Assembly: GCA_965263355.1 (NCBI GenBank)
Contig: CBDHHL010000056.1
Coordinates: 1-64,000, forward strand
Source of the DNA: Leptolyngbyaceae cyanobacterium
GTDB lineage: Bacteria; Cyanobacteriota; Cyanobacteriia; Phormidesmidales; Phormidesmidaceae
Direction: 5' to 3'
Length of the DNA: 64,000 nt
Shown: in pieces, positions 2,024 to 18,800 of the stretch
Position numbering within the stretch: position 1 is the first letter of the stretch
Layout: each line of letters opens with the position of its first letter
Program-made: the position numbers and the translations under genes
Notes under the pieces: generated by a model
What the model was told of the DNA's origin: nothing
Database searches by the model: none
Seen by the model: only the letters and a program-made list of their open reading frames with translations

Positions 2024-2110
2024 GCCTAACGTTCCTGGTCAGCGGTTGCTAGTGACTTGGTTTCTTTTGTCGATCATGCTGGCCAATCCGCTGCACCAGG
2101 CTTGTTATGG
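2024..2110 (-). other. attC recombination site (87 bp)
   Basis: Minus strand: R'' CCATAAC, arm CCTGGT[G]CAGCGG[A]TTG pairing with CAACCGCTGACCAGG (two extrahelical bases), R' GTTAGGC; begins 28 bp after the cassette stop codon. Confidence 0.9.
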
Positions 2111-2138: not shown

Positions 2139-3551
2139 TTATCTTCTTTTAGTTACAGTTCTATTTTTCTCCACCCGCTTTTTCTTCCAATCTTTCAAGG
2201 AGATAAATAATTCTTTAGGATTAAAAGAAGGAGCTTTTCCACTAAAGATCAATTGCAGTAAAAAATTCAACAGGAACCATGCTGAGGTAACGACATAAAC
2301 AGTGGGTTCAATCCAATCCCAGCCTCCTGACTTTGTGATTTTCCAGTAACTCAAGAAAATAAGAGATAACAATACCAGAAAATATAGCATTGACCAGAAT
2401 CTGGCAAAGTCGGTTGAAATCCGGTTTTCAAGTTTAGTCCTTTCATTCTCTAACATTTGAAAATCAGATTGAAGTCGATTTAGTTCGTTTTCAGAGACAA
2501 TTGAACCCTCGCCCAAAATCATTTTGCTTCTAGTATGAGTAGTTTCTGCGAGACAAGTATATGCATATGTCTTTTTGTAATCTAGATTATGAATCAAATC
2601 TCTTTCGTCAAAACTAAGCTTTTTAAAAATTTCAAATGTATGCACTGCGCTAATATTTTTGAATCTTAAAACGACATAGACATCCACTAAATAGCCTTTA
2701 GCAACCGCAGTTACATCAAATATATATTCATATGCATCAGGAGAGTGTATCAGGCTTGAGATCTCTTGCTCTAAAATTTGATAATCTAAAACCTTTGTCT
2801 CGATAGTTAGACCCTTTAAATTTGAATATCTTTTTCGGTCAGCAGGCTCCATCTGGATATCTGATAAAGTCTGTTGACCATCAATGTTTTTCGGATACTT
2901 ACCATTACTTAGATCATCAAGTCGATCGGTAATATTTTGCTTTATCCTTTTTAATCTATCGGTTTCGGAAAGCACTTTTCCTCTGTCCTCTATTATGCCG
3001 ATTAAAGTAACCTGATTAAAATATTGATAATTGGCAGCGCAATGAGCAATTACGTTTATGTAAGGATCTGGACGTTCGGAAGTCGTAAATATATACAGCT
3101 TAGATTGTTTTGCCAAACCGTCTTGGACTTTCAATCCTGTACTTTCCAAAAGGATTTCTCCTTTATTTTGCGACTTGACAGTCATCAAGTTGGCTAGCGC
3201 CTGATTTACATTGCTACCAACGCCACAACTCATGGATAAACCAGTAAAACCATTGAAGATTTTTGTTATTTCTTCTAAAAAGACCTGCTCATTTTCAGGA
3301 AATTCATATTTATCATATTTAACTAAAACGTCATCTCCACCAGAAATCAAAATTTCTGCACCATTCTTTGACTCAACAAAAAGCTCTATTTTGAATATCG
3401 CGAGCTTAATACTTTCTGATAAATGTGTCGCTTCTTTGACTCTGCCACCATTAAGTAAATTCTCTATGGCATTACCAATATTGTCTCCATCGAAAAAGGC
3501 ATATCTAGCTGCTTTAATCTTAGGTAAGTCAGACCAATCAAGAAGTTGCAT
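2139..3551 (-). CDS. Integron cassette protein: mCpol (minimal Cas10-like palm/cyclase) + CARF-like domain + coiled coil + 2 TM helices; putative anti-phage signalling protein
   Basis: FFDGDNIG (aa19-26), SGGDD (aa70-74), SCGVG, KxxxKG fit mCpol; LYIFTTSERPDPY and YIFDVTAVAK (D-x-T-x3-K) fit CARF; hydrophobic helices at aa385-403 and 414-436. Confidence 0.75.
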   Translation of the reverse strand: MQLLDWSDLPKIKAARYAFFDGDNIGNAIENLLNGGRVKEATHLSESIKLAIFKIELFVESKNGAEILISGGDDVLVKYDKYEFPENEQVFLEEITKIFNGFTGLSMSCGVGSNVNQALANLMTVKSQNKGEILLESTGLKVQDGLAKQSKLYIFTTSERPDPYINVIAHCAANYQYFNQVTLIGIIEDRGKVLSETDRLKRIKQNITDRLDDLSNGKYPKNIDGQQTLSDIQMEPADRKRYSNLKGLTIETKVLDYQILEQEISSLIHSPDAYEYIFDVTAVAKGYLVDVYVVLRFKNISAVHTFEIFKKLSFDERDLIHNLDYKKTYAYTCLAETTHTRSKMILGEGSIVSENELNRLQSDFQMLENERTKLENRISTDFARFWSMLYFLVLLSLIFLSYWKITKSGGWDWIEPTVYVVTSAWFLLNFLLQLIFSGKAPSFNPKELFISLKDWKKKRVEKNRTVTKRR

Positions 3552-3689: not shown

Positions 3690-4457
3690 GTCGGGTAAGG
3701 AAGCAGGTTTTAAATATATCCCGCTTCCTCCCCTCAGAACCGTACGTACAACTTTCACTGTATACGGCTCAAGCAATGTCTTGAAATTCAGTTTTTCCGA
3801 TTCTTAACAACCTTTTCAGATTGTCCTGATGGTTACGTTTACAAGCCGAAGCTTGCACCTAACTTTTCCCAATCAGTTAAGTTTCATCTCACCTTCATTC
3901 AAGTCCATCACCTATCCCACGTCAGCCCCCTTTCAGGTTGGGCAAATGCCCTATCTGCCCCGTTATGAATTCCGGTTGCCTTTCGGCTGGCAGCTTTCGC
4001 TTCTTGGGATATCCTGTGCCCGCTAGAGAGTTCAGCTTTGGTTGCCCTCCGCTTACCTGGAAAATAAAGTATTTTCAGGACTCTATCGGGGTTTCCTCGT
4101 TCCGCACGGGGTGGAGATATGATTGCTTTAGGATTCCTCTTTACTCCGAGAGCGGGATGTTCTTGATTGGCATTTAGACGCTACCAACCCCCATATGCTC
4201 CAATATTCTCGTATCAGCCATTTCGAGAACTCACATTAACGAAGCCTCATCAAGGATTCACTTGCGTTATCCTTAGCAATCTTGCCCTAGCCTGCACCCT
4301 CTTGTTGGCTCAGAAGATACTGCGACATTTAACCTCGTCTGCTGATGCTGCCCTCCCATTACTGGTCGAACATTCCGAGGCGGACATCCGCCTGAACACT
4401 GGCGGGGAGAGTCATTTGGGAGTCTCTCCAACTCCCCCGAACGACTTCGAGTCGCGC
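3690..4457 (-). mobile_element. ORF-less group II intron (IIB/chloroplast-like type), 768 nt
   Basis: 5' end GCGCGAC (GUGYG variant); 34-nt domain V GAGCCGTATACAGTGAAAGTTGTACGTACGGTTC at 3737-3770; domain VI hairpin with bulged A ending ACCCGAC; complementary ATCAGC/GCTGAT (alpha-alpha'-like); no RT ORF. Confidence 0.88.
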
Positions 4458-4476
4458 GCATAACTATCGTTTATCC
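4458..4476 (-). other. attI simple site (L box, 5-bp spacer, R box)
   Basis: Minus strand GGATAAA-CGATA-GTTATGC has attI1 geometry; lies upstream of and divergent from intI; TTATGC matches the cassette's own R'' CCATAAC. Confidence 0.75.
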
Positions 4477-4600
4477 AGAAACTTTCTGGATAATACCCCC
4501 AGACTCGGAGTTATCCAGAAACTTTCTGGATAAACACCCTATAAGCGAATATCCCAGAAACTTTCTGGATAATACCCCCAGACTCGGAGTTATCCAGAAA
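4471..4600. repeat. Array of 23-bp palindromes TTATCCAGAAACTTTCTGGATAA on a ~40-bp period (3 full copies + 1 half)
   Basis: Copies start at 4471, 4511, 4550 (variant) and 4590 (half); spacers 1 and 3 are identical (TACCCCCAGACTCGGAG). Confidence 0.95.
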
Positions 4601-4618
4601 GCTTTAAAGTATCTTTAC

Positions 4619-4634
4619 TAGTTCAAGTGAACTA
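4619..4634. promoter_or_regulatory. Palindromic operator upstream of intI, possibly LexA-type
   Basis: TAGTTC-AAGT-GAACTA resembles the cyanobacterial AGTAC-N4-GTACT box with one change per arm. Confidence 0.3.
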
Positions 4635-4686
4635 TTGAGTAATGATTGATACATAGATGTTTTAGTATTTCTACGTATCAATTTAC

Positions 4687-5652
4687 ATGTCATCTAAGCC
4701 AAGGACTCTACTAGAAGCTGTTCGTGATGCTATTCGTGTCAAGCATTACTCATATAAAACTGAAAAAAGTTACATTAATTGGATTAAGCGATACATTCGA
4801 TTTCATAACTGGCAGCATCCCAGAAATATGGGAGGTCCAGAAATTGAGGTATTTTTAACCCATTTAGCCGTTACCAAAAAGGTGGCCGCTTCTACACAAA
4901 ATCAAGCACTCTGCGCCTTACTGTTTCTATACCGTACTGTTCTGCAACTGGACCTGGACTTGAATGTGGATGCAGTTAGGGCTAAACGCTCCCAACATAT
5001 CCCTACAGTTCTATCAAAAGAGGAAGTAAGGGCCGTTATTCAGCAACTTTCAGGTGTCTATCGTCTGGTGATACAGCTTTTATACGGCTGCGGCTTTAGG
5101 CAGATTGAATGTCTACGACTCAGGGTCAAAGACATCCAATTCGCTCAACATCAAATAGTTGTGCGCGATGCCAAAGGAATGAAAGATCGAATCACCATGC
5201 TACCTGATGTTTTGGCCATACCTCTACAAGAACATTTGCAAGGTGTTAGACGTTTACACAAACAGGATTTAGAGAGAGGTCAAGGGGCTGTTGATTTACC
5301 ATTTGCCCTAGCTAAAAAGTATCCCAGTGCGTGTCGAGAATGGGCATGGCAATATGTGTTTCCCTCGGAAAGATATTCTAAAAATCCTCGAACCGGTCAG
5401 TGGCAACGTTATCATCTGCATGAAACAGGTTTGCAAAAAGCTGTTAAACAGGCAGTACGCCAAGCGGGCATCTATCAAAAAGTCGGTTGTCATACCTTTC
5501 GCCATAGTTTTGCGACTCACTTGTTACAAAATGGCTACGATATTCGCACCATTCAAGAATTACTCGGCCATAAAGACGTCAAGACCACAATGGTTTACAC
5601 CCATGTGCTTAATCGCGGCGGACATGGCGTACGCAGCCCATTAGATTTGTAA
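4687..5652 (+). CDS. intI: Integron integrase (tyrosine recombinase)
   Basis: [20 protein letters not shown], integron-specific insert [42 protein letters not shown]...TTMVYTHV. Confidence 0.97.
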
Positions 5653-5772: not shown

Positions 5773-8700
5773 TTAAGCAAAGAACTGCTGGAAGGAAGTC
5801 TCTGCCAGAGGAGCAGTCACCCCTTGAAGTACCGCTAGCGTTTCACTCCCTGTGCCCAACAGTAAGTCATTACCTTGAACAGTCTGAGTGATTGCGCCAA
5901 AGCTCAATCCATCCAGTAGGCCAATGGTATCGATACCCACTTCAAAGTCAGTGATGATGTCAGTACCGTCACCCACTGCATAGGCAAAGGTATCGCTACC
6001 CTCACCATCGGAGAAGTTGTCGCCAGTTAGGGTGTCGTTACCGAGGCCGCCTACGAGTAGGTCAACACCATCGTCACCCCAAATCATGTCGTCGCCTTCA
6101 TCACCAAACAGTAGGTCGTTGCCGCCTTTACCGCCGATGCGGTCATTGCCCGCACCGCCAAAGATGGCATCGTCACCACCGGAACGACCCTGGGGATATC
6201 TGTTATTCAGGTCACCCCGTAAAATGTCGTCACCATTACCACCGCTGATGATTTGGTCACCTTCTCCACCAGCTAGGATGTCGTCACCACCGGTACCCGC
6301 AACGTCAGCATCGGGTTCAACCCCGTCGTCAGTGCCGCTATCAGTACCACCATCGGTACCACCGTCAGTACCACCATCGGTGCCGCTGTCAGTACCACCG
6401 CCACCAGTGCTGCCACCGTCAATTACAGTGTCCTCACGGAAGGCCAGGTTCTGAATGCGAGCATCTTCCTCAGGAGATACATCAGCATCAGCAAAGGCCG
6501 TCTCGGCAGTACCAAAGTTAGCTGCCAGGTACTCAGCCAGAGCATCTTGCTCAGACCCATCAGGGGCAAATGTCGCCACGCCAGTGCGGGCTGCATCATC
6601 CTCTTGGGCCAGCTGAACCACATCGCGCTCGGGGAAGGGATAGCCATCGCCACCGCCTGCCAAGAAGCTAAGGGTAACCATCCGGAATGTACGGCTGGCA
6701 TCGCCTACCAGTTCGCCATTTTCAACAATCACGTCAGCATCGTTGCCCTCTTCATCGAGGACTACCAGAGACTGTACGCGGTCATTGGGTGCGGCACTGG
6801 GGTCAAAGCTAAACTCTAGACCGCTCACCTGAGGGAAGCGACCAGGTGTTTCACCCTCTTCAGTGGCCGCCACACCGTGCTCGATCACAGCCAGTAGTTC
6901 TTCAGCTGTGATGGTCAACAGCGTTAGACCATTGTTAAACCGCAGGGTGTTGGCAATGTCGGTTTCGGAGATACCGCCCTCAGGCTTAACGCCAGGAATC
7001 TCTTCATTGGGTAGTAGCTCAGGCTCACCGGTACCGCCTGCAGGAATAACAACACGACCGATATCATCGCGGATGCCACCACCGTTCTTGAGGGAGATAA
7101 CCACGCTATCATCGGCTTCCTTGGCAATGGCCAGGTTAGCATCAGCAGTCAAGTTACCCAGGTTAGTTTCCTCAGTTCGGACACTGGCACGTACACCGTT
7201 GAGGTATACATCACTGATACCAAAGACGTTGCTTTCCTTGGCAACAATGACTTCTTCTAGGGCATCTACGATGGCCTGAACTTCGGGGTCAACCAACCCT
7301 TCTGCCCCCAGAGCCGCAACACCTTCATCATCGGTGGCATAGGCACCGCTAACTGCGGAGTCGTAGCTCTCAGGAATGATGATGCCATTCTCGTCAAAGT
7401 CAACCACCAGGCGACCGACATACTTGTAGTTACCATCGGTGTTAACAACGGCAACAGGGTTACCATCGGCATCAGTAGTGAAGATAGGATAAGTACCCTG
7501 AGATTCGTCACCATCGCGGAGACGGTCATTCTCATCCGTTAGACGAGTGTTAGAACCACCCGCAACAATGATATCCACACCACTTAGACGTGTTGCTAGC
7601 TCTTGCTCAATGCTGATTTGCTGCATGTGGGACAGCAGAACAACCTTGTTCAGGCCAGGGTTGAGCGCCAGCATCTCATCCACATCCTGCTGGATTTCTG
7701 CAGCCAATGCGTCTAGCTGTTCGGCAGTGGGGGTACCGTCGAAGTCCTCAGGTAGAACAGTGACACCATCGGGGCTAGCAATTATGGGCAGTGTGGGTGT
7801 AGTGGCACCGACAATACCAATCTTCTCACCGCCGACAGTTAGTACAGTAGTTGCTGCCAGGCTGTTAGGTTCGGGGGCTTTATCATCAGCCACTACCAAG
7901 TCAGCCAGGTTTTCATCCGTACTAAAGTCCAGGTTGGAGCTGAGGTAAGGGAACTGAGCACCCACAAAGGATTCATCCACATCGGGAGTGGTTGGATCAT
8001 CGTCTACACCAGCGATGAGATCGCTAAGTAAACCAGTACCCAGGTCAAACTCGTGGTTACCCAGGGCAATGGCTTCAAAGCCTAGCTCGTTCTGGATTAG
8101 GATATCAGCCCGACCCTGACCGCCGAACACTTCTTCACTGGCACTAAAGAAGAGACCCGGTAAGATGGCATCACCAGAAGACAAAGTAACAGTGTTGTCA
8201 AAGTCATCCCGCAAAGCGTTAAGCACTGCAGAGAAGTTTGGCGCATCATCCAAGGCAGGAATTCCAGCTTCTTGGTCAGCGGCATGCAGTAGCTGCAGGG
8301 TGAATGTAGATGGCTCAGGAGTGACTTCCTCTAGGGTGAACTTGGCCACCAGAGGCTCGTGGTCACTGGCGACAACAGTGTCTGTAAACAGGGCACCGTT
8401 GTCATCACGAGTGAAGTCATTGTTGACATGGACGATGTCAAACTCAGCTCCCTCTAGTAATGAGTCAGTAACAAACAAGTGGTCTAGAACTTGGCTGTTA
8501 CCGTCGAAGATGAAGGTATAAGCATCATCAGCAGCAATAGCCTGGTCCACCAGGTTGGTGAGTACCTGCTCATCTCCAGTACCAGGCAGAATTTCAGCCA
8601 GGTCGTTGGTGAATTCAAAGGTATTGAGGTCACCGAGAACAATTACCTTGGCGTCAGGGTTGGTGTCGACAATGCTATCTACAAAGTCGTTTAGGGCCTG

Positions 8701-11700
8701 GGCCTGGGCTTCACGCGCTTCCTCACCTGCCTGAACAAAGGGCTGAGGGCCACCATATACTGGGGAAGAACCAAAGCGAGAGGTGAGGTGGTTATTGACC
8801 ACGGTCACCAGGTTGCCGTTGAAGGTGAAGTTGGCTACCAAGGGCAGACGAGTGCCTTCAAAGGCGGGGTCATTCTCAATGGCGGCAAAGGAATCTAGCT
8901 CAACCCGCTCTGGGTTATACAGGTAAGCGTTGCGGATGTTGCCACCGGGAACGCCGCCCTGGGTGCCGTCTTCGGGAGCGACATCGAAGAATGCATAGGT
9001 AGGACCACCGGCAGCAGCAATGGCATCTACCAGGGTCTGCAATGTTTCAGTGGCGTCCACTGTGCCATCGTCAGTCACACCGTTGTTATCCTGAATTTCT
9101 TGCAGGGCAACAATGTCAGGAGCATTCAGGTTAGTAACAATCTGTTCAGCCAGTAGGGCAAACTGTGCTGTGTCTGTGCCATCGGCTGCCAGGTTAAGCA
9201 CGTTGTAGCTAGCTACTGTCAGGTCACTGTCGCTGCCAGCAATACTAGTTACTTCCTGCTCTAAACCACCGGGAGTGATGTCAAACTCTTCAGTAACATT
9301 GACCTCGAAGTTACCGAAGCTGTAGCCCACAACACCAGTTACATCGCCAAGCTGGTCACCCACATTGAGAGCAGGAATGTCAAAGCCATCGGGCATGGTG
9401 TTGGGGTTAAGCTGAATCTGTACCCGCTCAGGGTTCTGGTCACCAGTGTTGTCGGGACCAGAGTTGAGGTTGATACTGCCGCGAGCAGTGAGACCATCTT
9501 CAGGCGTCACCCCTGCACCCTGGTTGGGTAGAGTAAATGCCTCGGCAGAGAATGGACTAAACACACGGGTGGGAGATACGGCTACGGCATCTTCCACAGT
9601 AACGCGCATACCTTCTAAGCTTTCGTAGAAGTCGATGGCGTCTTCGTTGGGGTCAAAGTTACCGGCGTCTTCCTGGAGGTTAACGGGTAGCTCATCTTCG
9701 CTGATAACAGTTTCGCTGGGAGCCAGACGACCGCTCTCACCAATAACAACTGCAGCAGGTAGCTCATTGTCAGAGGAAAGAACCACTACATCGGGGTCTC
9801 TCATCTGAGTGGTGGAAAGGTTACCAGTGCTAGCACCGCCAGGAATAAATTCGCTGACTACACCAAACAGACGCACCTCATCACCAACGCTAACGGTGGG
9901 GCTATCGCTAGTGGAGATAAACAGACCTTCGGAAGTGGCATCATTGCCATCGTCAGTACCCTGGACATAAAAGCCACGGAAATCTACCGCAGTCACAATG
10001 CCTTCGGTCTGAACCAGCTCACCTTCAAGTGGGGAAATGTGGCCTTCGCCCTGAATCTCAGAGATGGTGGCAGAGTCCACATTGGTTTCGTAGATAGCCA
10101 GGGTATTGGAAACTTCGTTAGCAACTGCTAATAGAGGCTGACCATTGGGGCTATCTTCTGCCGAGATAAAGGTGAGACCCTCGGGGGCGATATCCTCATC
10201 GCTGCGGGCATATTGCACAAACTCAGGATTAGTGGGGTCGCTAAGGTTAAACACCATCACACCGCCACCGGCACGCTCTAGACCTACAAAGGCAAAGGGC
10301 ACACCGCCGATTTCACCGGTAGTTACGGCCTCCGGCTCAGCACCCTTGTTATCAGAACGAGTGTCGAAGTCCTCGGGGCTACCGTTGTTGGCATTAAATA
10401 GGTCAGGCGTCTGCTCAGCCGTAATCTCAGCAATCAGACTGCCGCTGTCATACACCTGGTTGCCGTTCTCATCCCAGATGGAGAAGGAACGACCCCCATA
10501 GGAGAACAGCTGGTCGAGGTCACCGTCACCATCAATGTCACCATCGATAGTGGAGATGGCCAGACGACCCAGGTTCTCATCTTCGGTTAGGGTGGGGTCA
10601 ATGCTCTCGTCTAGGGCTAGACCTGTGCGGCCAAAGGAGATTACATCGGCCAGGTCACCTAGACGAACTGCGTCACCACGCTCGTCTTCGTCAGCATCAC
10701 CGCGATCGTCACCTTCATTCGCTGTGATGTAGAAAGTTTGACCATTGGCTTCGAAGGAGGCGATGGAGTCTGGCATAAACAAGCCAAATACGGGCTGGTT
10801 TTGGATGTTGATAGCACCGTCGCGATCGCTAGCATCCAATCCATTGCTAGCCCCGTCTGCAGCCTCACCGGCAAAGTCAATCAGACCCAGCTGAACCGCT
10901 TCAGCACCGGCTTCTAGACCAAAGTCGTTGTCGTTAAGGACAGCCAAACGACCATCGGGCAGCAGTGCCAAACCTTCGGGCTTATCGGACGGCAAGTAAC
11001 CGATGGAAGGCAGGTTAGTCACCTTGATCTTGTTAACTGGCTGGATACCAGCGGCAGCCAAGTCATCGGGAGTTTGCTGCTCTAGAGTTTCTCCACCAAA
11101 GTCCTGACCTAGAACGTTAGTAGCACCCTTGATGTCCACTTCAAAGACAAACTTCTGAGCAGTGGGGTCCAGGGCAGAATCCCGCTCCATGACAAAGAAT
11201 TTGCCGTCACCTGCATAAACTGCATCACCGATTTTGTCGACGTTGTTGCCTAATTCAGGATCCTGTAGCAGGTAAACATATTCAGCAACGGGCTCACCGG
11301 TTTCAGGGTTAATACCAATCATGCGGATGACGCTGGAGGCATCGCCATCGGCACGGGTGGGGTTGCTCATGGGAGTCTGGATAAAGGCATAGACGATGTT
11401 CTCGTCAGTATCCAGAGCTAGACCTTCAAACCCACGGTTACGGCGACGGTTGAGGTATTCCTCGGGCAGTGTTTCAGTACCAAAGGTGCCCTCTGCAAAT
11501 GTAGTACCAGGGTTGGCTTCGTTTGCCTGGTCAACGGTGCCGTTGGGAACAAACCGGTCAATCAGGGTGCCATCTGCATTGAAGTGGTAGATAGCAGGAC
11601 GGTACTCATCCACCATCCAGAAGCTGCCATCCTCAGCACGGACAATGCCCTCCAGGTCAGCACCTAAGGGGTCAAAGTCAGAACCAAATTCAGCGGCATC

Positions 11701-12861
11701 TAGCTGAGTTAGGTCAGCCAGGTCAACAGGATTCTGCTCAGCGTCAACGGCGGTGCGGTCCACATTGGGAATGTTGGGCAGACCTGTGATTGGCGTACCA
11801 TCGGCCTGAGTTAGGAACAACTCATCGGTGATAGCCACTTCACCAGTGGCTTCGTTTAGCTCCAGGGAAACTACGCGGGACTGATAGTCAGGTAGCAAGA
11901 AAGCACGGGACTCAGTGCTGCCGTCGCCATCCAGGTCTAGGGGGTCACCGTTGGGGCCACGGTCGGGTACGGCCAAGAACTTGAGGTTGCCGTTTTCAGC
12001 GACGCCATCAAACCAAAGACCGGAGAAGCCACCCAGCTCGATGGTCTCACCAGTGGCGGTAGTTAGGGCATCACCACCGTTGGTGATATCGCCCCGGTCA
12101 GTGATGTCGAAAGTAGTCAGGTTGGGTAGACCCTGGCTAAAGTCCTTAGCACCTAGGGGAACAATCCCTTCTACTTCGTTAGTTTCTAGATCGATAACTG
12201 CCAGGGCGTTGTTTTCCTGCAGGGTGACAAAGGCCTGGGAACCATCGGGGGAAACGGCCACATATTCAGGTTCAAAGTCTTGGGCGGCACCGGCATCGGG
12301 GAAGATGCGTACACCATCAGCTCGCAGGTCAGCTTCACGACCGTTAAAGGCGTCAAACCCGACGGTGGTTACACTAGCCTGGGAAAGACCGGCAACACCC
12401 CCGGAGATATCGATAACGCTAACGGAACCATCAGGATCCACACCGCCATCGGGCTCACCTTCGTTGGCGGTGAGAATTTTTGTGCCGTCGGGGCTAAAGA
12501 CAAGGTTGTCGGGTAATGCACCGACTTGCACTACCTGGAATGCAGTGAGGTCACCACCTGCCAAAGCTGCAATGTCGGCAACGGCAACAAACCCAGGGTC
12601 GGTTTGGGGGTCAGCACCGATTGCGATCGCAACCATGTCATTCCCCACAGCAACACTATTCACCCCATCCACATTGGGAATTAAATCGGCTATATCCAGC
12701 ACGCTCAGTAAGTCAGGGTTGCTGGGGTCAGCCAGACTAAACACCTGAACTTCAGTGCTACCACTGACCACAAACAGGGATAACGTGCTTGGGTCAAACG
12801 CGGTAATCTCAGCGCCAATGTCGCTGGTTGCACTACCAATTCTCTCTAAAAAATCTGCCAT
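5773..12861 (-). CDS. Giant secreted multidomain phosphatase/nuclease: atypical alkaline phosphatase (choice-of-anchor I type) with inserted phytase-like domain, OB-fold + EEP nuclease, 5'-nucleotidase, RTX tail
   Basis: TANEGEP, RSDNKGAEPE; DRGPN/DEYRP/NRGFEG/NDNDFG; ASYNVLN, LQEIQD, GDLN, SDHEP; LLHAADQE, GNHEFD, GGGIR, GRFPQVSG; GGxGxD repeats. Confidence 0.88.
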   Translation of the reverse strand: MADFLERIGSATSDIGAEITAFDPSTLSLFVVSGSTEVQVFSLADPSNPDLLSVLDIADLIPNVDGVNSVAVGNDMVAIAIGADPQTDPGFVAVADIAALAGGDLTAFQVVQVGALPDNLVFSPDGTKILTANEGEPDGGVDPDGSVSVIDISGGVAGLSQASVTTVGFDAFNGREADLRADGVRIFPDAGAAQDFEPEYVAVSPDGSQAFVTLQENNALAVIDLETNEVEGIVPLGAKDFSQGLPNLTTFDITDRGDITNGGDALTTATGETIELGGFSGLWFDGVAENGNLKFLAVPDRGPNGDPLDLDGDGSTESRAFLLPDYQSRVVSLELNEATGEVAITDELFLTQADGTPITGLPNIPNVDRTAVDAEQNPVDLADLTQLDAAEFGSDFDPLGADLEGIVRAEDGSFWMVDEYRPAIYHFNADGTLIDRFVPNGTVDQANEANPGTTFAEGTFGTETLPEEYLNRRRNRGFEGLALDTDENIVYAFIQTPMSNPTRADGDASSVIRMIGINPETGEPVAEYVYLLQDPELGNNVDKIGDAVYAGDGKFFVMERDSALDPTAQKFVFEVDIKGATNVLGQDFGGETLEQQTPDDLAAAGIQPVNKIKVTNLPSIGYLPSDKPEGLALLPDGRLAVLNDNDFGLEAGAEAVQLGLIDFAGEAADGASNGLDASDRDGAINIQNQPVFGLFMPDSIASFEANGQTFYITANEGDDRGDADEDERGDAVRLGDLADVISFGRTGLALDESIDPTLTEDENLGRLAISTIDGDIDGDGDLDQLFSYGGRSFSIWDENGNQVYDSGSLIAEITAEQTPDLFNANNGSPEDFDTRSDNKGAEPEAVTTGEIGGVPFAFVGLERAGGGVMVFNLSDPTNPEFVQYARSDEDIAPEGLTFISAEDSPNGQPLLAVANEVSNTLAIYETNVDSATISEIQGEGHISPLEGELVQTEGIVTAVDFRGFYVQGTDDGNDATSEGLFISTSDSPTVSVGDEVRLFGVVSEFIPGGASTGNLSTTQMRDPDVVVLSSDNELPAAVVIGESGRLAPSETVISEDELPVNLQEDAGNFDPNEDAIDFYESLEGMRVTVEDAVAVSPTRVFSPFSAEAFTLPNQGAGVTPEDGLTARGSINLNSGPDNTGDQNPERVQIQLNPNTMPDGFDIPALNVGDQLGDVTGVVGYSFGNFEVNVTEEFDITPGGLEQEVTSIAGSDSDLTVASYNVLNLAADGTDTAQFALLAEQIVTNLNAPDIVALQEIQDNNGVTDDGTVDATETLQTLVDAIAAAGGPTYAFFDVAPEDGTQGGVPGGNIRNAYLYNPERVELDSFAAIENDPAFEGTRLPLVANFTFNGNLVTVVNNHLTSRFGSSPVYGGPQPFVQAGEEAREAQAQALNDFVDSIVDTNPDAKVIVLGDLNTFEFTNDLAEILPGTGDEQVLTNLVDQAIAADDAYTFIFDGNSQVLDHLFVTDSLLEGAEFDIVHVNNDFTRDDNGALFTDTVVASDHEPLVAKFTLEEVTPEPSTFTLQLLHAADQEAGIPALDDAPNFSAVLNALRDDFDNTVTLSSGDAILPGLFFSASEEVFGGQGRADILIQNELGFEAIALGNHEFDLGTGLLSDLIAGVDDDPTTPDVDESFVGAQFPYLSSNLDFSTDENLADLVVADDKAPEPNSLAATTVLTVGGEKIGIVGATTPTLPIIASPDGVTVLPEDFDGTPTAEQLDALAAEIQQDVDEMLALNPGLNKVVLLSHMQQISIEQELATRLSGVDIIVAGGSNTRLTDENDRLRDGDESQGTYPIFTTDADGNPVAVVNTDGNYKYVGRLVVDFDENGIIIPESYDSAVSGAYATDDEGVAALGAEGLVDPEVQAIVDALEEVIVAKESNVFGISDVYLNGVRASVRTEETNLGNLTADANLAIAKEADDSVVISLKNGGGIRDDIGRVVIPAGGTGEPELLPNEEIPGVKPEGGISETDIANTLRFNNGLTLLTITAEELLAVIEHGVAATEEGETPGRFPQVSGLEFSFDPSAAPNDRVQSLVVLDEEGNDADVIVENGELVGDASRTFRMVTLSFLAGGGDGYPFPERDVVQLAQEDDAARTGVATFAPDGSEQDALAEYLAANFGTAETAFADADVSPEEDARIQNLAFREDTVIDGGSTGGGGTDSGTDGGTDGGTDGGTDSGTDDGVEPDADVAGTGGDDILAGGEGDQIISGGNGDDILRGDLNNRYPQGRSGGDDAIFGGAGNDRIGGKGGNDLLFGDEGDDMIWGDDGVDLLVGGLGNDTLTGDNFSDGEGSDTFAYAVGDGTDIITDFEVGIDTIGLLDGLSFGAITQTVQGNDLLLGTGSETLAVLQGVTAPLAETSFQQFFA

Positions 12862-12896
12862 GATCTCTCCACAAGTAAAATCGCGTTATATACAGC

Positions 12897-12947
12897 CCCC
12901 ATATCCCACGGGGAGAAGTTGGGCTGATAGCTTCTCCCCGCATGGGG
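12897..12947. terminator. Strong intergenic hairpin between the two phosphatase genes
   Basis: CGGGGAGAAG (12909-12918) / CTTCTCCCCG (12931-12940), plus outer CCCCAT/ATGGGG. Confidence 0.6.
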
Positions 12948-12950
12948 TCG

Positions 12951-15900
12951 TTAGATTTGAATGAAGGACTCAGGGGCCAGGGACGTTACCCCCTGAACCA
13001 GAGCCAGAGTTTCATCTGCAGTACCTAATAACAAGTCACTACCCTGGACAGTTTGAGTGAGCTGTCCAAGACTCAACCCATCGGCTAGACCCATGAGATC
13101 TACACCGACTTCAAAATCAACGATGGTGTCTGTGCCTTCGCCAATAGCCAGCACAAACGTGTCGATACCGCTGCCACCGGAGTTGTTATCTCCCGTGAGG
13201 GTGTCATTCCCTAAACCACCACGCAGCAGATCGTCGCCATCATCCCCCCAAATTTGGTCGTCACCGGCATCACCAAACAACGTGTCATTGCCGGACTTAC
13301 CGCCGATGCGGTCATTGCCGTTACCACCGTAGATTAAGTCGTCACCGCCAGCTTCACCGGTTTGGGCATCACGGGAGTTGCGATCGCCCCGTAGTACGTC
13401 ATCCCCGTCACCACCGAGAATCACATCGTCACCCAAAGCACCCGCCAGCAGGTCATCCCCAGCTAGACCAGCTAGTTTACTGCTTTCATCACCGTTTACT
13501 AGCGCATCATTTGTCTCAGAGCCACCCAACACATTTGTTTCTGGATTCACCACAAACTGACTGAGAATAGTCGGCTCTTGATTAATGATGGATTCCGGAT
13601 TGGCCAACAGTTCGGCTTCGGTATAGCCATCAATCCCCCAGGTGGTTACAGTTAACGCTTGGGTGACGGGGTCAATTTCAAACTCAGTCCAGGTGGAGCT
13701 ATGACCGACGTAGTAAGAACCCTGTAACAAGGTGGCATCAATTAGTCCCTCAGCCTGGGGTAGATTGTTATCTAAACCGATGGGGTCATAACCCAGGGGC
13801 GTTAGCAGCACATCGTTAATGGCTGCCTCGACAAAGTCGTCTTTATCGTTAGGAATGTTATCTCCATCCGGTGCAATTGGCAGACTGTCATAAAACGCTC
13901 TCAGTGCAGGGTCACCAGCAGTAAAGACTTCACCTAAGAAGCGACCTGTAGGATCTTCATAGGCCACTGCCCCCGTGGTCACCTCAAATGCGCTAGTCGC
14001 AATGTGCTCACCAAAGGGCACTTCCTGATAGGTGATGTTGTTAACCGATGTCATGTGGACATCAGCGGCAACAAACACCACGTTTTCAATGTCATTCGCA
14101 TCGATAAACTTCAGAATTTCAGTCCGCTCAGCGTTATAGCCATCCCAGGCATCGGTATTGATACCAGGGAAGAGATTCTGGAAGGGCTCTGGCACCATAA
14201 TGAACTTCCAGGTCACTCCAGATGCTTCAGCATCCAGCAAATCTGCCTTGAGATCTTCAAGCTGAACCTCGCCCATCAAGGTACGACCAGGGGTAAATGT
14301 AGCGGCTAGTGTAGTGGCTACATCGTTGGGGTCAAAGGCATTGGCAGGTCCAGGAATCGCGGTGTCTCGGAAGGAACGGGTATCCAACACAAATGTAGCG
14401 GCATCACTCCCAAAGGTGTTATAGCGGTAAAGCTTACGCTCACCTTCTGTAACCGGATCGCCGGTCTCACCATAGAATTCATCCCGAATTGGGTTGTATT
14501 CCTGGAAGACCTGGAGACCGTTCTCATAGAGAGTACTGTCGTTGATAAGTGCGTTTGGATCATCGCCAGGAAACGCTTCTAGGAAACGGTCGTCAGTGCC
14601 AAGAGGCTGACCACCCGCAAAGTCGTTTGTCACTTCATGGTCATCAATGGTGGCATAAACTGACGTAGAGGCCCGCACATCAGCCCACACATTTTGACCA
14701 AAGCGCTGACCATAGACTTCATTGTGCTTAGCGCGAAACTCATCCACGGTGACTGCCTGATCACTAGGAGTACCATCAGGATTCAGCACCGCCGGAGAGT
14801 CATCATCGGCATAGATGGTGTCGCCATGGAGCAAGAAGAAGTCGAGATTTTTCTCAGCTACATTGCTAATGGATGGATAGGGAGCAATCTCACCACGCCA
14901 GTCGCCCGTCACACCAAAGTGTAGACCGGTTTGTTCCCCGGCAACAGCGGCAGTTTCAAACCGACCGACTTCGCTATCGCCTGCGGCATCGGTTACCCGA
15001 TAGAAGTATTCAGTGTCAGCGTCTAGACCCTGCACATCTACTTTCACCGGCTGGTTGATTTCGGTCACCGTTGCAGTGGCTGTACCAGCAATAGAGCTAA
15101 AGTCCTCACTGGTGGAGTACTCAAATGTGACCTCACCGGGGAACGTGCTGCGGGCCCATAGCACCACAGAATCTTGAGTAACATCGCCACTGGCCACACC
15201 GTTGACCAGGGAATGTACCCCAGGATTGCGGGGGTCGTAGCTAGTGGGATCAATGTCTAGGGGATTCTCAAAAGAACCGGCCACCGATTCCCAGGGAACA
15301 AACTTAAAGTTGGTGCTGTTGTTTTCTAGCTCTTCGTCATCCTCAACTACATTCTGAGGATCGTTAGCACCATCTTGCAGCACCAATAAGCCATTAGGAA
15401 ACGCAGAGCCCACCGGCACGTTAATCACATCCAGGCCATCACTTTCGTTTACCTGGTCAATGTCGCCATTGCCGCCTACAACAAAGCTGCCCAGGTATTC
15501 GTTAGTGCCCTCACGGCTAAACACTGCGTAGGAGGAATCTCCCTGGCTGTTGGCGATTAGATAACCGCTGCCATCGGCACCATAGTAGATGCTCAGCCCT
15601 TCAATATCGGGGACCAGATAGTCAGCGTCAACGGGCTGAACTACCTGGAAGTCATCACCACCATTGGGTTCCGCAGAGAACTTCAGAATGCCAACTTCGT
15701 CTTCAAGCGCCACGTACAGGAAGCCCAATTCCTGGTCAATCACAATACCCTCGGACTGGGAATCGGCTGCATCCCCTGTGGGCACTGGCAGATCTAGTAC
15801 TCGAACCACATGGGCACTGACCTTACCGCCATCGTCTACCAGCTCTAGCTGAGCCACCTGGTTACCGTCGGCCTGGGTAACAAAGGCATAGGATGTACCA

Positions 15901-18593
15901 GAAACAGGACTGGTGTAAGTGGCTAACCCGTAAGCCGTGGCCTCACCATCGTCCACACCAAAGATAGTTTCGAGAATACCGTCAGCGGTAACGTCCTCTA
16001 GCTGCTGATTGTCAGGGTTCACCTTGAAGATTGCCAGGGTGTCATTTTCGCGATCGCTAGCCACCGCCAGGTCAACGCTCTCACCACCCAGTTCAAAGCC
16101 GTAGACCAAATCCACATTGTTATAGCGGAAGCCACCAAATTCCTCAGGGGCAACAGTTTGTAAAACATTACCCTGAAGATCAAAGGTGGCCAGACCGCCA
16201 TCCTTAAGTGTGCCGATGACCAGACTCTCATCCCCATTGTCAGGGTTCACCCAAATCGCCGGATCATCCGAGTCACCGATTAGGGGAGTCTCTGCCTCTT
16301 CATCATCCTGAGTCAGGGGCGTTTCTACCACTGGCAATACCGCAGGCGTGGTATCAAAATCAACGGCAAAGGCCAGAAACTGAGTGAACTGACCATTGGG
16401 GTTGAAATTGTTGTCACTGGCAATAATCAGCGTCTGACGACCGTCCTCTAATGTAGGACCAAAGGCCAACGCCTCCAGATTATCAGGGGCAATCCCTAGA
16501 TCCGCTTCAATATCGAGAATTTCCCGCTTAATCACAGCCGGATCAATCTCGAAGGGGGCAGGGGGTAACACCTCCCCATCATCCTCTAAGGGCTCCTCAC
16601 GGAAAAGGTCGTCGGTGTTGAGCACATCCAGCGCACCTTGGGTCTGAATCTCAAACAGTTTGACCGTATTGCCCTGACCAACAGAAAAGCCACGCTCTAG
16701 CGCTAGCAATGTGCCATTGTTATCCACCGCCAGTAGCTCAACCAGACCGTTGGTATTAAAGGAATCAGCCGGGATAGGCTCCTCAGGAACAGCTTCTACC
16801 TCGTATACATAGGAGGCAACGGGCTCACCTGTCGTCAAGTCATACTTAAGAATGCGGGACAGACTGCCCTCGTCAACGCTGGCAGCAGGTCCATCCTGGA
16901 ATAGAGCATTCTCAGTCGCTGTATAGAGATAGCGCTGGTCGGGCGTAATCGTTAAACTCTCAAAGGCCAGATTATTGCGAATACCACTAGACTGGTCTGC
17001 TGTGGGGAAGTAAATATCAGGAATAGGCAGATCCTGAATATACTCAGCGGACAGCGAAATCTCACGAATAAAGGGATCAATCAGCGCATTAGCATCCCCT
17101 TCGGAAGACACATAAAGGGTGCCACGACTGGTGAGGGCAATGCCCTCTGGATCGAGATCGCCATCGGCAAACGGCTCACCATCGGTATCCAATAGCTGGG
17201 TGACATCAGAGAAGGTGACATCCCCGTCATCAAGGGTGCCATCACTCAGGTCAATGTCAATGGTATAAAAGCGCGCGTCTGAACTGCGGTCATCGGCCAG
17301 CGCGTAGTAAACATTACGGGTTGCATCATAGGCAAGACCCGACAGCCCCCCCACCTCAGTGTCAGAGAATTCAAATCCTGTTGGGAACTGAACTTCCCCT
17401 AGGAATTCAATCCCACTAACAGATTCACGGTTCTGTGCTGCACCTTCAGACGGAGGAATCGTTACATCCGTATACACCAATCTGTGGTCAGATGTGGGAA
17501 ATTCTGCCAAGGGGAAAAGTGGGTCGGTGCTTTCCTGCCAAAAAACTTGCGCATCTTCAATCACAAGGTTATTTGATGGCAAAACGTAATCTACCCGTAG
17601 ATTTCCAGGGGGATTGTCATTACTTGGATCGTCAAAATTAAAGCCAAAGTCAGCTGTATCAAAAGCAGGATCACCCAAATGAGTAGTATTAGCCCCACCT
17701 TGACGAATCGCTGCATCAGGACCACCTGCACTGGAAGGGGTTGCCGATACATTGACCAGGGGATTATCCAATAGCTGCAAAATGGCATTGTCAGTACTGT
17801 CGCCATCGTAGGGATCGGCGTTTTGATCCCCCATGATGACAAACCGTTCACCATCCCCTAAACCGCCCGTAGCGCCTTGATCGTCATAGATATAGTCACC
17901 GGCACCGGGGGTAATATAGTCACTCCAGAAGCGAATCTCATCATGGTTGCGAGTTCCGTTGCGATCCTCTTCCCCATCAAACACTGGCGGAGTAGGATGA
18001 CTCACCAACACATGCACCGTTTCACCGTCTACCTCAATGGGGACATCCCAGTGACTTTTGGATGAAAGGCGGAAAATGTCTAACTCTGCTTCCGAGTACC
18101 AATCCTGGGGCTCAGGTGTGCTGGGATCATCGGGCAGTAAAGCTCCCGGCATATCTTTCCACAAAAAGTTCTGAAACGTGCGAACGTTCTCAGTATCGAT
18201 GGGATGCTTGGACAACAGCACCATGCCAAACTGACCTGGGAAAAACCCAAACCCAAAGGCGTCGCCTGGGCCATCGGTGGTCCCATCGTTATCAAAATCA
18301 GCTCCAGACGGTATACCTGTGTTGGAGGGAGCAATATAAACGTAGGGATACTCAACCGGAGTTTCACCACTTTCTAAATAGTTTGTTTTGAACAGTTCAA
18401 CGGCTTCACCGCTGTCATCATAATCAAACTCGTTAATCAGTAATACGTCTGGGTTGGCCTGTTGAATAATGGCAGCAACAGATTGAGCTTGAACATCATC
18501 TGGAGTAGAAAGATTATCTATAAGTTCTCCAGAATTGCTGCGGTTGAGAGAGGCATTAAATGTAGCGAATCGAATGGATGCAGACTTTGACAT
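12951..18593 (-). CDS. Giant secreted multidomain protein: EEP-family domain, phytase-like domain, beta-propeller phytase, PhoD alkaline phosphatase, RTX tail
   Basis: ATFNASLNR/INEFDY/SDHR; GGLSGL/NNLAFES/SDNNF; DSDDPAIW/YNNVD/SDGLD; GVASGD/HGDTIYAD/DDHEVTND/LDTRSFR; likely ATG at 18593. Confidence 0.88.
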   Translation of the reverse strand: MSKSASIRFATFNASLNRSNSGELIDNLSTPDDVQAQSVAAIIQQANPDVLLINEFDYDDSGEAVELFKTNYLESGETPVEYPYVYIAPSNTGIPSGADFDNDGTTDGPGDAFGFGFFPGQFGMVLLSKHPIDTENVRTFQNFLWKDMPGALLPDDPSTPEPQDWYSEAELDIFRLSSKSHWDVPIEVDGETVHVLVSHPTPPVFDGEEDRNGTRNHDEIRFWSDYITPGAGDYIYDDQGATGGLGDGERFVIMGDQNADPYDGDSTDNAILQLLDNPLVNVSATPSSAGGPDAAIRQGGANTTHLGDPAFDTADFGFNFDDPSNDNPPGNLRVDYVLPSNNLVIEDAQVFWQESTDPLFPLAEFPTSDHRLVYTDVTIPPSEGAAQNRESVSGIEFLGEVQFPTGFEFSDTEVGGLSGLAYDATRNVYYALADDRSSDARFYTIDIDLSDGTLDDGDVTFSDVTQLLDTDGEPFADGDLDPEGIALTSRGTLYVSSEGDANALIDPFIREISLSAEYIQDLPIPDIYFPTADQSSGIRNNLAFESLTITPDQRYLYTATENALFQDGPAASVDEGSLSRILKYDLTTGEPVASYVYEVEAVPEEPIPADSFNTNGLVELLAVDNNGTLLALERGFSVGQGNTVKLFEIQTQGALDVLNTDDLFREEPLEDDGEVLPPAPFEIDPAVIKREILDIEADLGIAPDNLEALAFGPTLEDGRQTLIIASDNNFNPNGQFTQFLAFAVDFDTTPAVLPVVETPLTQDDEEAETPLIGDSDDPAIWVNPDNGDESLVIGTLKDGGLATFDLQGNVLQTVAPEEFGGFRYNNVDLVYGFELGGESVDLAVASDRENDTLAIFKVNPDNQQLEDVTADGILETIFGVDDGEATAYGLATYTSPVSGTSYAFVTQADGNQVAQLELVDDGGKVSAHVVRVLDLPVPTGDAADSQSEGIVIDQELGFLYVALEDEVGILKFSAEPNGGDDFQVVQPVDADYLVPDIEGLSIYYGADGSGYLIANSQGDSSYAVFSREGTNEYLGSFVVGGNGDIDQVNESDGLDVINVPVGSAFPNGLLVLQDGANDPQNVVEDDEELENNSTNFKFVPWESVAGSFENPLDIDPTSYDPRNPGVHSLVNGVASGDVTQDSVVLWARSTFPGEVTFEYSTSEDFSSIAGTATATVTEINQPVKVDVQGLDADTEYFYRVTDAAGDSEVGRFETAAVAGEQTGLHFGVTGDWRGEIAPYPSISNVAEKNLDFFLLHGDTIYADDDSPAVLNPDGTPSDQAVTVDEFRAKHNEVYGQRFGQNVWADVRASTSVYATIDDHEVTNDFAGGQPLGTDDRFLEAFPGDDPNALINDSTLYENGLQVFQEYNPIRDEFYGETGDPVTEGERKLYRYNTFGSDAATFVLDTRSFRDTAIPGPANAFDPNDVATTLAATFTPGRTLMGEVQLEDLKADLLDAEASGVTWKFIMVPEPFQNLFPGINTDAWDGYNAERTEILKFIDANDIENVVFVAADVHMTSVNNITYQEVPFGEHIATSAFEVTTGAVAYEDPTGRFLGEVFTAGDPALRAFYDSLPIAPDGDNIPNDKDDFVEAAINDVLLTPLGYDPIGLDNNLPQAEGLIDATLLQGSYYVGHSSTWTEFEIDPVTQALTVTTWGIDGYTEAELLANPESIINQEPTILSQFVVNPETNVLGGSETNDALVNGDESSKLAGLAGDDLLAGALGDDVILGGDGDDVLRGDRNSRDAQTGEAGGDDLIYGGNGNDRIGGKSGNDTLFGDAGDDQIWGDDGDDLLRGGLGNDTLTGDNNSGGSGIDTFVLAIGEGTDTIVDFEVGVDLMGLADGLSLGQLTQTVQGSDLLLGTADETLALVQGVTSLAPESFIQI

Positions 18594-18800
18594 GGCAAAT
18601 AACAGCCTGGGGTAAGACAACAGGCAGAGGGATGAAATAGGATTTCTGGCTTGACGCTAAACCACCTCCAAACAGAAAGTTGCCGTTCCTCCATAGAAAA
18701 ACGACGGTCTCAGATATGGAAGAGGTTTAATCAGGAAGCTCTACTGAGCTATGTCCCCTGAGCGATAACTAAAACTAAGTGGTAATTATCAAACAAGACA

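Follow-up and report, generated by a model that had tools for sequence, protein, structure and literature searches.

A single-chain mCpol-CARF-2TM protein in a cyanobacterial integron cassette: a likely one-gene type II Panoptes guard with a candidate MCU-type membrane module

Results and Discussion

The 64,000-nucleotide stretch that we analyzed (the window: positions 1 to 64,000 of contig CBDHHL010000056.1, assembly GCA_965263355.1, Leptolyngbyaceae cyanobacterium) carries an intact open reading frame (ORF) at 2139 to 3551 on the reverse strand, the 470-amino-acid product of which joins a minimal Cas10 palm (mCpol) domain, a CARF domain, and two transmembrane helices (2TM). We consider it likely that this protein, encoded in an integron cassette, is a type II Panoptes guard in single-chain form; more tentatively, its membrane module would be of the type found in the pore subunit of the mitochondrial calcium uniporter (MCU). 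The fusion itself has been catalogued before; the MCU signature is more surprising, accounts for most of the interest, and was not found in the papers searched.

Domain architecture of the fusion protein

A sequence-only reading of this DNA had proposed that synthase, sensor, and membrane effector are fused in one chain, with a coiled coil ahead of the 2TM. All of the motifs that it quoted are present, and its domain assignments are supported. The palm domain matches PF18182 at amino acids (aa) 17 to 133 (68.6 bits versus a cutoff of 26.4; Pfam) and NF033576 (45.3 bits versus a cutoff of 40; NCBIfam), while aa 150 to 436 match CARF_m9--CARF_TM (E = 2.8e-50; PADLOC). Residues D21, D23, D73, D74, K126, K130, D279, T281, and K285 are all in place. 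In structure comparison, the palm fold is minimal, has two catalytic Asp sites, and is nearer to OptS than to GGDEF or Cas10 proteins; the structure-neighbor (VIA) lists for the full model were taken up by this domain. The middle domain is a CARF Rossmann fold with the D-x-[ST]-x3-[RK] motif. An ordinary GGDEF diguanylate cyclase, which together with a non-CARF middle domain had been named beforehand as part of the outcome that would undo the assignment, was rejected: the motif is GGDDV, no GGDEF Pfam match appears at E values up to 1, and the Z score is lower than that for OptS.

The AlphaFold model of the whole protein has a mean predicted local distance difference test (pLDDT) score of 82.7, with a low-confidence linker at aa 138 to 147. 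One long helix (aa 354 to 406) comprises the coiled coil and TM1 and is followed by helices at aa 410 to 437 (TM2) and 445 to 469; hydropathy peaks are consistent with the modeled transmembrane (TM) helices. Since 12 Lys or Arg residues follow TM2, the C-terminal helix is probably cytoplasmic, which, together with a cytoplasmic enzyme at the other end, would place both termini inside the cell. No sensor domain beyond mCpol, CARF, and 2TM is present in the 470 aa.

An assembly artifact as the source of the fusion was also rejected, as 49 homologues, most of them full-length, were recovered at 32 to 92% identity. The catalytic and CARF residues are invariant across 39 aligned proteins, and all three motifs are retained in 53 of 56 fused proteins. 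The window has a cyanobacterial character, and among named proteins the closest member of the 90% cluster to which the query belongs comes from a Leptothoe sp.; no relatives were found in IMG/VR or in the phage collection.

Relation to type II Panoptes

The published sources drawn on here were available in part, and statements about them refer to the available text. Sullivan 2025 (PMC12657218) reports that mCpol is at times fused to HEPN or 2TM domains, and Supplementary Table 3 of that paper has "mCpol+" at 23 places. Fifteen of its rows read mCpol+dCARF+TM+TM (11 from cyanobacteria, 2 from Acidobacteriota, 1 from Bacteroidota, and 1 from Desulfobacterales), match our protein in architecture and length, and include a protein of Baaleninema simplex (WP_017662074.1, 466 aa); the B. 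simplex homologue in our set (P0005) is 466 aa long and 65% identical to the query. These fusions are listed without experiment, and the available main text makes no mention of integrons.

The functional reference is the two-gene mCpol and CARF-TM system of Gruschow 2026 (PMC13577387), in which three tested type II mCpols make cyclic tri-adenylate (3'3'3'-cA3; cA3), synthesis by the two-gene system runs at about 1 per hour, the CARF-TM effector is toxic without cA3 and arrests growth, apo-CARF multimerizes, and the triggers are Acb1, Acb2, and Crn4. The only passage on a "fused" protein in the available text concerns mCpol-Csx1. In the available text of two recent reviews (2026), type II is presented as a two-gene system or Panoptes is not connected with integrons, and that of Doherty 2025 has no CARF or fusion term. 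In the literature searched, we found neither an experimentally tested mCpol-CARF-2TM fusion nor a Panoptes-integron link; Burroughs 2015 and Makarova 2020 lie outside this scope and could bear on priority. The earlier statement that no characterized example of the fusion is known therefore still holds within the searched literature, although the architecture had already been catalogued in 15 rows. The earlier comparison with a Panoptes mCpol that makes a cyclic dinucleotide needs correction: the closest system is type II Panoptes with its cyclic tri-adenylate.

The window protein has the same mCpol and CARF families in the same order as type II Panoptes, with conserved spacing of the catalytic Asp residues, and its GGDD matches D63/D64 of the type II mCpol, whereas type I OptS has AADG. 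The mCpol is coupled to a CARF-2TM effector in both, by fusion here and by translational coupling of two polypeptides in the native type II operon. Type I Panoptes OptS/OptE (mCpol plus S-2TM-beta) differs in making 2',3'-c-di-AMP and in using a beta-barrel rather than a CARF sensor. Single-protein CARF+HEPN+mCpol fusions, noted in print, likewise combine synthase, sensor, and effector in one gene but have an RNase effector and the mCpol at the C terminus. By this comparison, the window gene would represent the catalogued one-gene form of type II Panoptes and would work like it.

Fused and two-gene forms

A total of 48 loci (several of them duplicates) comprised 22 fused, 19 split, 6 mCpol-only, and 1 CARF-only arrangements, and at most of the split loci the stop and start codons overlap or are closely spaced. 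A tree of 74 concatenated cores (58 fused and 16 two-gene, leaving out duplicates and 8 incomplete rows) has three changes between fused and split labels, at least two of which are forced by starred branches. Monophyly of the fused proteins was rejected (p-AU = 0.024; approximately unbiased test), and these proteins fall among two-gene operons whose genes are tightly coupled. A separate CARF tree (88 rows) places a stand-alone CARF-TM of Fischerella thermalis as sister to the subclade of the query (SH-aLRT 96), and the published table (PMC12657218) lists an F. thermalis system as two genes. Because fusion and fission look easy, we infer that both forms work alike.

A two-gene system on a Nostoc plasmid served as a proxy for the characterized type II system, being distinct from the characterized protein itself. 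It aligns with both query domains (hhalign, 99.96% and 99.2%), and its mCpol has Asp at positions 11, 63, and 64, the numbering of the characterized enzyme. This mCpol and CARF-TM operon (locus L023, 1247 to 4622) is divergent from an adjacent SMODS nucleotidyltransferase gene. Unlike the query, the proxy has a shorter TM tail that lacks the coiled coil and WxxxEP.

Variants of the family were also observed. CARF domains linked to mCpol carry other C-terminal parts at two loci, namely, a nucleoside deoxyribosyltransferase-like domain (L014, 10365 to 11429; under the cutoff) and EAD11 (L017, 10385 to 11329), and P0025 has a TIR domain appended after the 2TM of the fusion. A fusion with 66% identity (L001) lies on a contig assigned to a Phycisphaeraceae metagenome-assembled genome (MAG) and nests among cyanobacterial copies, reflecting either transfer or mis-binning. 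Decayed copies have both mCpol and CARF broken (L012, 10001 to 10825; L016, 10001 to 10983) or, in P0038, an intact mCpol and a broken CARF. In this small and biased sample, no copy combined a broken mCpol with an intact effector, as the guard model predicts.

A probable depletion-triggered guard

Depletion-triggered guard logic is quite probable by analogy with the two-gene system, and cA3 is a reasonably likely ligand of the fusion. Judged by homology, the mCpol domains would make cyclic tri-adenylate from ATP slowly and constantly, and cA3 at the CARF dimer interface would, as in the two-gene system, hold the protein as an inactive dimer. Removal of cA3 by phage sponges or nucleases, such as Acb1, Acb2, or a ring nuclease, which has been shown for two-gene systems, would here lead the CARF domains to multimerize and the membrane module to arrest growth. 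In the last and least certain step, CARF dimers freed of ligand would pair, and the MCU-type hairpins of four subunits would assemble into a pore, their E415 residues making up a ring at its periplasmic side; Ca2+ or other cations passing through this pore would run down the membrane potential. OptS is a dimer of dimers, and the fused mCpol could therefore scaffold this four-subunit assembly. Fusion would fix the ratio of synthase to sensor at 1:1 and let the system move as one cassette.

Several points weigh against this reading. The Nostoc proxy branches far from the query in the tree, and its TM module is of another kind that lacks the motif, so that both the ligand and the mode of killing are extrapolated. 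Among 13 genomes with an intact fusion (many of them incomplete MAGs), SMODS occurred in 2, RAMP in 6, and either in 7, and the survey of homologue neighborhoods called for by the sequence-only reading revealed no cas or cyclic-oligonucleotide-based antiphage signaling (CBASS) family among 85 ORFs that surround the fused genes at the 13 loci. In addition, the characterized CARF-TM lost its toxicity when given a short His tag at either the N or the C terminus (PMC13577387, S5 legend), and an N-terminal mCpol could for the same reason change the behavior of the CARF-TM.

The blocking effect of tags also fits a view in which the fusion is partly formal and an internal start at the old gene junction also yields free CARF-TM, which would be the killer. 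Of 53 fused relatives, 32 retain the old start Met at the junction, compared with about 4% expected from the linker (the rows are related and not independent), and the window gene has TTG at codon 146. The remaining 21 of 53 lack a junction Met, however; the subclade of the query has lost it, the query included, and L001 reads CTA in place of the window TTG. We regard an internal start as improbable.

The sequence-only reading had offered a self-contained tripwire or, alternatively, a phage-activated pore; the tripwire is supported, and the phage-activated pore is less likely than a depletion-triggered guard. Type III CRISPR membrane effectors such as Cam1 are opened by oligoadenylate and provide the model for the alternative, positive signaling, in which mCpol would be silent until a phage trigger and oligoadenylate would then open a CARF-gated pore. 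A tethered synthase might keep the ligand locally high and blunt a depletion sensor, the fusions lack CBASS neighbors, and Sullivan 2025 leaves the sign of signaling open for other effectors (PMC12657218). Yet the fusion contains no extra sensor domain, the same dCARF label covers characterized inhibitory systems, and the repeated switching between fused and split proteins points to a shared logic, which makes positive signaling unlikely. For the depletion-triggered guard, the catalogued fusion raises the question of whether a depletion sensor still works with its synthase tethered, a modest addition if taken alone.

A candidate MCU-type membrane module

The sequence-only reading treated the 2TM part as generic, a view that calls for revision: the sequence spanning the loop and the beginning of TM2 is WDWIEPTVY (aa 411 to 419), the full WDXXEPXXY motif of MCU subunits (PMC6727756), placed after a first TM helix as in MCU. 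In MCU, four subunits each contribute their Glu to the Ca2+ site, which the Trp and Pro brace, and the Asp residues make a ring outside it (bioRxiv 2020.05.26.117242). Across 49 modules, conservation reaches 90% or more at three columns only, those of W, E, and P. Among 178,838 open-frame residues of the collected loci, WDxxEPxxY is confined to this family, and shuffling the query 200,000 times produced it in 10 cases, in a test chosen after the motif was noticed.

Similarity searches return MCU as well. A first Pfam scan gave a below-threshold MCU match at aa 353 to 435 (E = 7.5e-4), and MCU was the commonest Pfam family other than mCpol and Cas10 (12 of 39 full proteins and 8 of 24 modules). 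With a 118-position profile of 24 bacterial modules, three fungal-type MCU chains ranked first in the PDB (E = 2.3e-4, 2.8e-3, and 7.6e-3), and MCU made up six of the top eight matches, in which E ranged from 2.3e-4 to 0.11. An Atlas structure search with the Fischerella effector listed an MCU cluster (TM 0.45, sixth of ten rows, under the bar); the ESM Atlas gave no feature matches. The fusion resembles the MCU pore subunit (PF04678; PDB 6d7w, 6dnf, and 6c5w) in its coiled coil, TM1, and WDxxEPxxY at the start of TM2 and probably has both termini on the inner side, as those of MCU lie in the matrix. It differs in that the similarity is weak and below cutoff, the Asp is often Asn or Ser in the fusion family, and the N-terminal part is CARF plus mCpol.

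It is possible that the 2TM is instead a generic membrane disruptor within the same guard, its likeness to MCU reflecting convergence or chance around a W...EP helix cap, and we take this alternative seriously. The best PF04678 score is 22.8 bits against a curated cutoff of 30.8, and for this reason we do not assign the fusion to the MCU family. With a longer 49-row profile, MCU remains first, at weaker E values of 0.036 to 0.22. Module halves without the motif do not retrieve MCU in profile searches, PsbZ, an unrelated hairpin, reaches E = 0.016, and K2P channel pieces score too. The full WDxxEPxxY occurs in only 7 of 76 relatives (W[DN]xxEPxx[YF] in 49, Asp plus an aromatic ninth residue in 20), with the Asp variable. 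The low rank of the Atlas MCU cluster, and the growth arrest by the characterized CARF-TM, whose likely relatives lack the motif, also favor a generic disruptor. Against it, conservation falls precisely on the residues that form and brace the MCU Glu ring, position 9 is aromatic (F/Y) in 61 of 76 relatives (W...EP..[YF]), three kinds of search (Pfam, PDB profile, and Atlas structure) all return MCU, and the printed alignments reach over the coiled coil and the segment after TM2. On balance, the sequence comparison leans toward homology of the membrane module to MCU; the module may work like MCU, and an MCU-type ion pore is a possible killing step.

In searches of 401 genomes of the cyanobacterial phylum and 401 of the Bacteroidota phylum, the module profile matched strongly only in the center genome of each set (plus two weak cyanobacterial matches), and Pfam MCU appeared in 2 of the 401 Bacteroidota genomes, both below the cutoff. 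One Bacteroidota ORF (L051, 1429 to 2496, reverse strand), directly after another ORF in a transposase-flanked region, ends in a coiled coil and 2TM and matches MCU structures (best E = 0.001), possibly a second defense context for MCU-like modules. MCU-like proteins of Bacteroidetes were reportedly noted without a function in a 2012 study. The terms MCU, uniporter, calcium, channel, and pore are absent from the available text of Gruschow 2026 (PMC13577387), as are MCU and uniporter from Supplementary Table 3 of PMC12657218, and no paper tying MCU to phage defense or treating its bacterial homologues was found by title or listing.

Integron cassette and surroundings

The cassette setting proposed from sequence was borne out: attC follows the ORF, which lies downstream of attI and of an intI in divergent orientation (Table 1), with attI assigned from its position and GTT core. 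The array is a single cassette ending at a converging nonribosomal peptide synthetase (NRPS) gene. Integron features also occur at 4 of the 13 genome loci with the fusion (L003, L004, L006, and L015); the tight attC pattern misses a degenerate attC behind L004 that is visible by eye. The reported lack of cas genes and CRISPR arrays likewise held: no cas or CBASS Pfam family is present in the 39 other window ORFs of at least 100 aa, and a repeat search found no CRISPR array in window bases 1 to 30000.

Table 1. Positions of the fusion gene, its encoded domains, and the integron features in the window
Feature	Positions	Strand	Details
attC ending the cassette	2024..2110	-	R''/R' boxes and hairpin; arms 96% identical to the attC behind homologue L003/L025
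mCpol-CARF-2TM fusion gene	2139..3551	-	470 aa; 35% GC versus 47.5% for the window
TM2 (aa 415-437) and basic C-terminal helix (aa 445-469)	2145..2309	-	AlphaFold model and hydropathy
WDxxEPxxY motif, MCU selectivity-filter signature	2295..2321	-	aa 411-419, start of TM2
Coiled coil (aa 354-381) running into TM1 (aa 382-406)	2334..2492	-	AlphaFold model and hydropathy
CARF domain	2517..3110	-	aa 148-345; D279-x-T281-x3-K285
Flexible linker at former gene junction	3111..3134	-	aa 140-147; pLDDT <50; junction Met lost here
mCpol palm domain	3135..3509	-	aa 15-139; catalytic D21, D73/D74
ORF-less group II intron, 768 nt	3690..4457	-	Rfam RF00029, 66.4 bits at 3690-3772; stops in all three sense frames
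attI region (inferred)	4458..4686	-	core site 4458-4464; palindromic repeat cluster 4469-4607
Integron integrase IntI	4687..5652	+	TIGR02249, 468 bits versus cutoff of 265; divergent from cassette

A group II intron lies between attI and the gene, on the same strand as the cassette and six bases past the attI crossover. It is conceivable that it blocks expression and that the cassette is silent cargo in this genome: the intron has no maturase of its own, and a promoter scan was at chance level (9 found versus 8.7 expected). We think this improbable as well, considering that the ORF is intact and occupies the first cassette position, that intron domains 5 and 6 score well, and that in two runs the intron ends (3690 and 4458, where contigs break) join other flanks, so that a maturase elsewhere is possible. 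In run X1, the intron 5' end joins a flank that by eye resembles an attC 3' end, and this intron family may thus target integron core sites; the attC-targeting introns named in the available text of a review are class C. The palindromic repeats at 4469 to 4607 are not common to related loci (blastn), and the many loose contig ends there suggest a dispersed repeat. Beyond the integron, positions 5773 to 18620 and 22724 to 25228 hold two very large multidomain phosphatase/nucleotidase proteins (2,362 and 1,889 aa) along with an RTX-repeat protein composed of four units of 564 bp.

Implications

The cassette setting suggests that cyanobacterial integrons offer a route by which an entire guard system can move. 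Since the killing mechanism of CARF-TM effectors is left open in PMC13577387, an MCU-type filter also gives a precise test (E415, W411, P416, and Ca2+ flux). A broader proposal, which we put forward as possible but less likely than not, is that some type II Panoptes effectors, both fused and two-gene, form a clade that uses a true prokaryotic MCU homologue, such that one polypeptide would make cyclic oligoadenylate, sense its loss through CARF, and arrest the infected cell through a tetrameric Ca2+/cation channel. If this is true, bacterial MCU-like proteins would gain a function in immunity, the uniporter pore might be related to, or derived from, a nucleotide-gated defense effector, and the MCU-type filter, if real, would connect a bacterial immune effector with an ion channel of central importance in eukaryotes.
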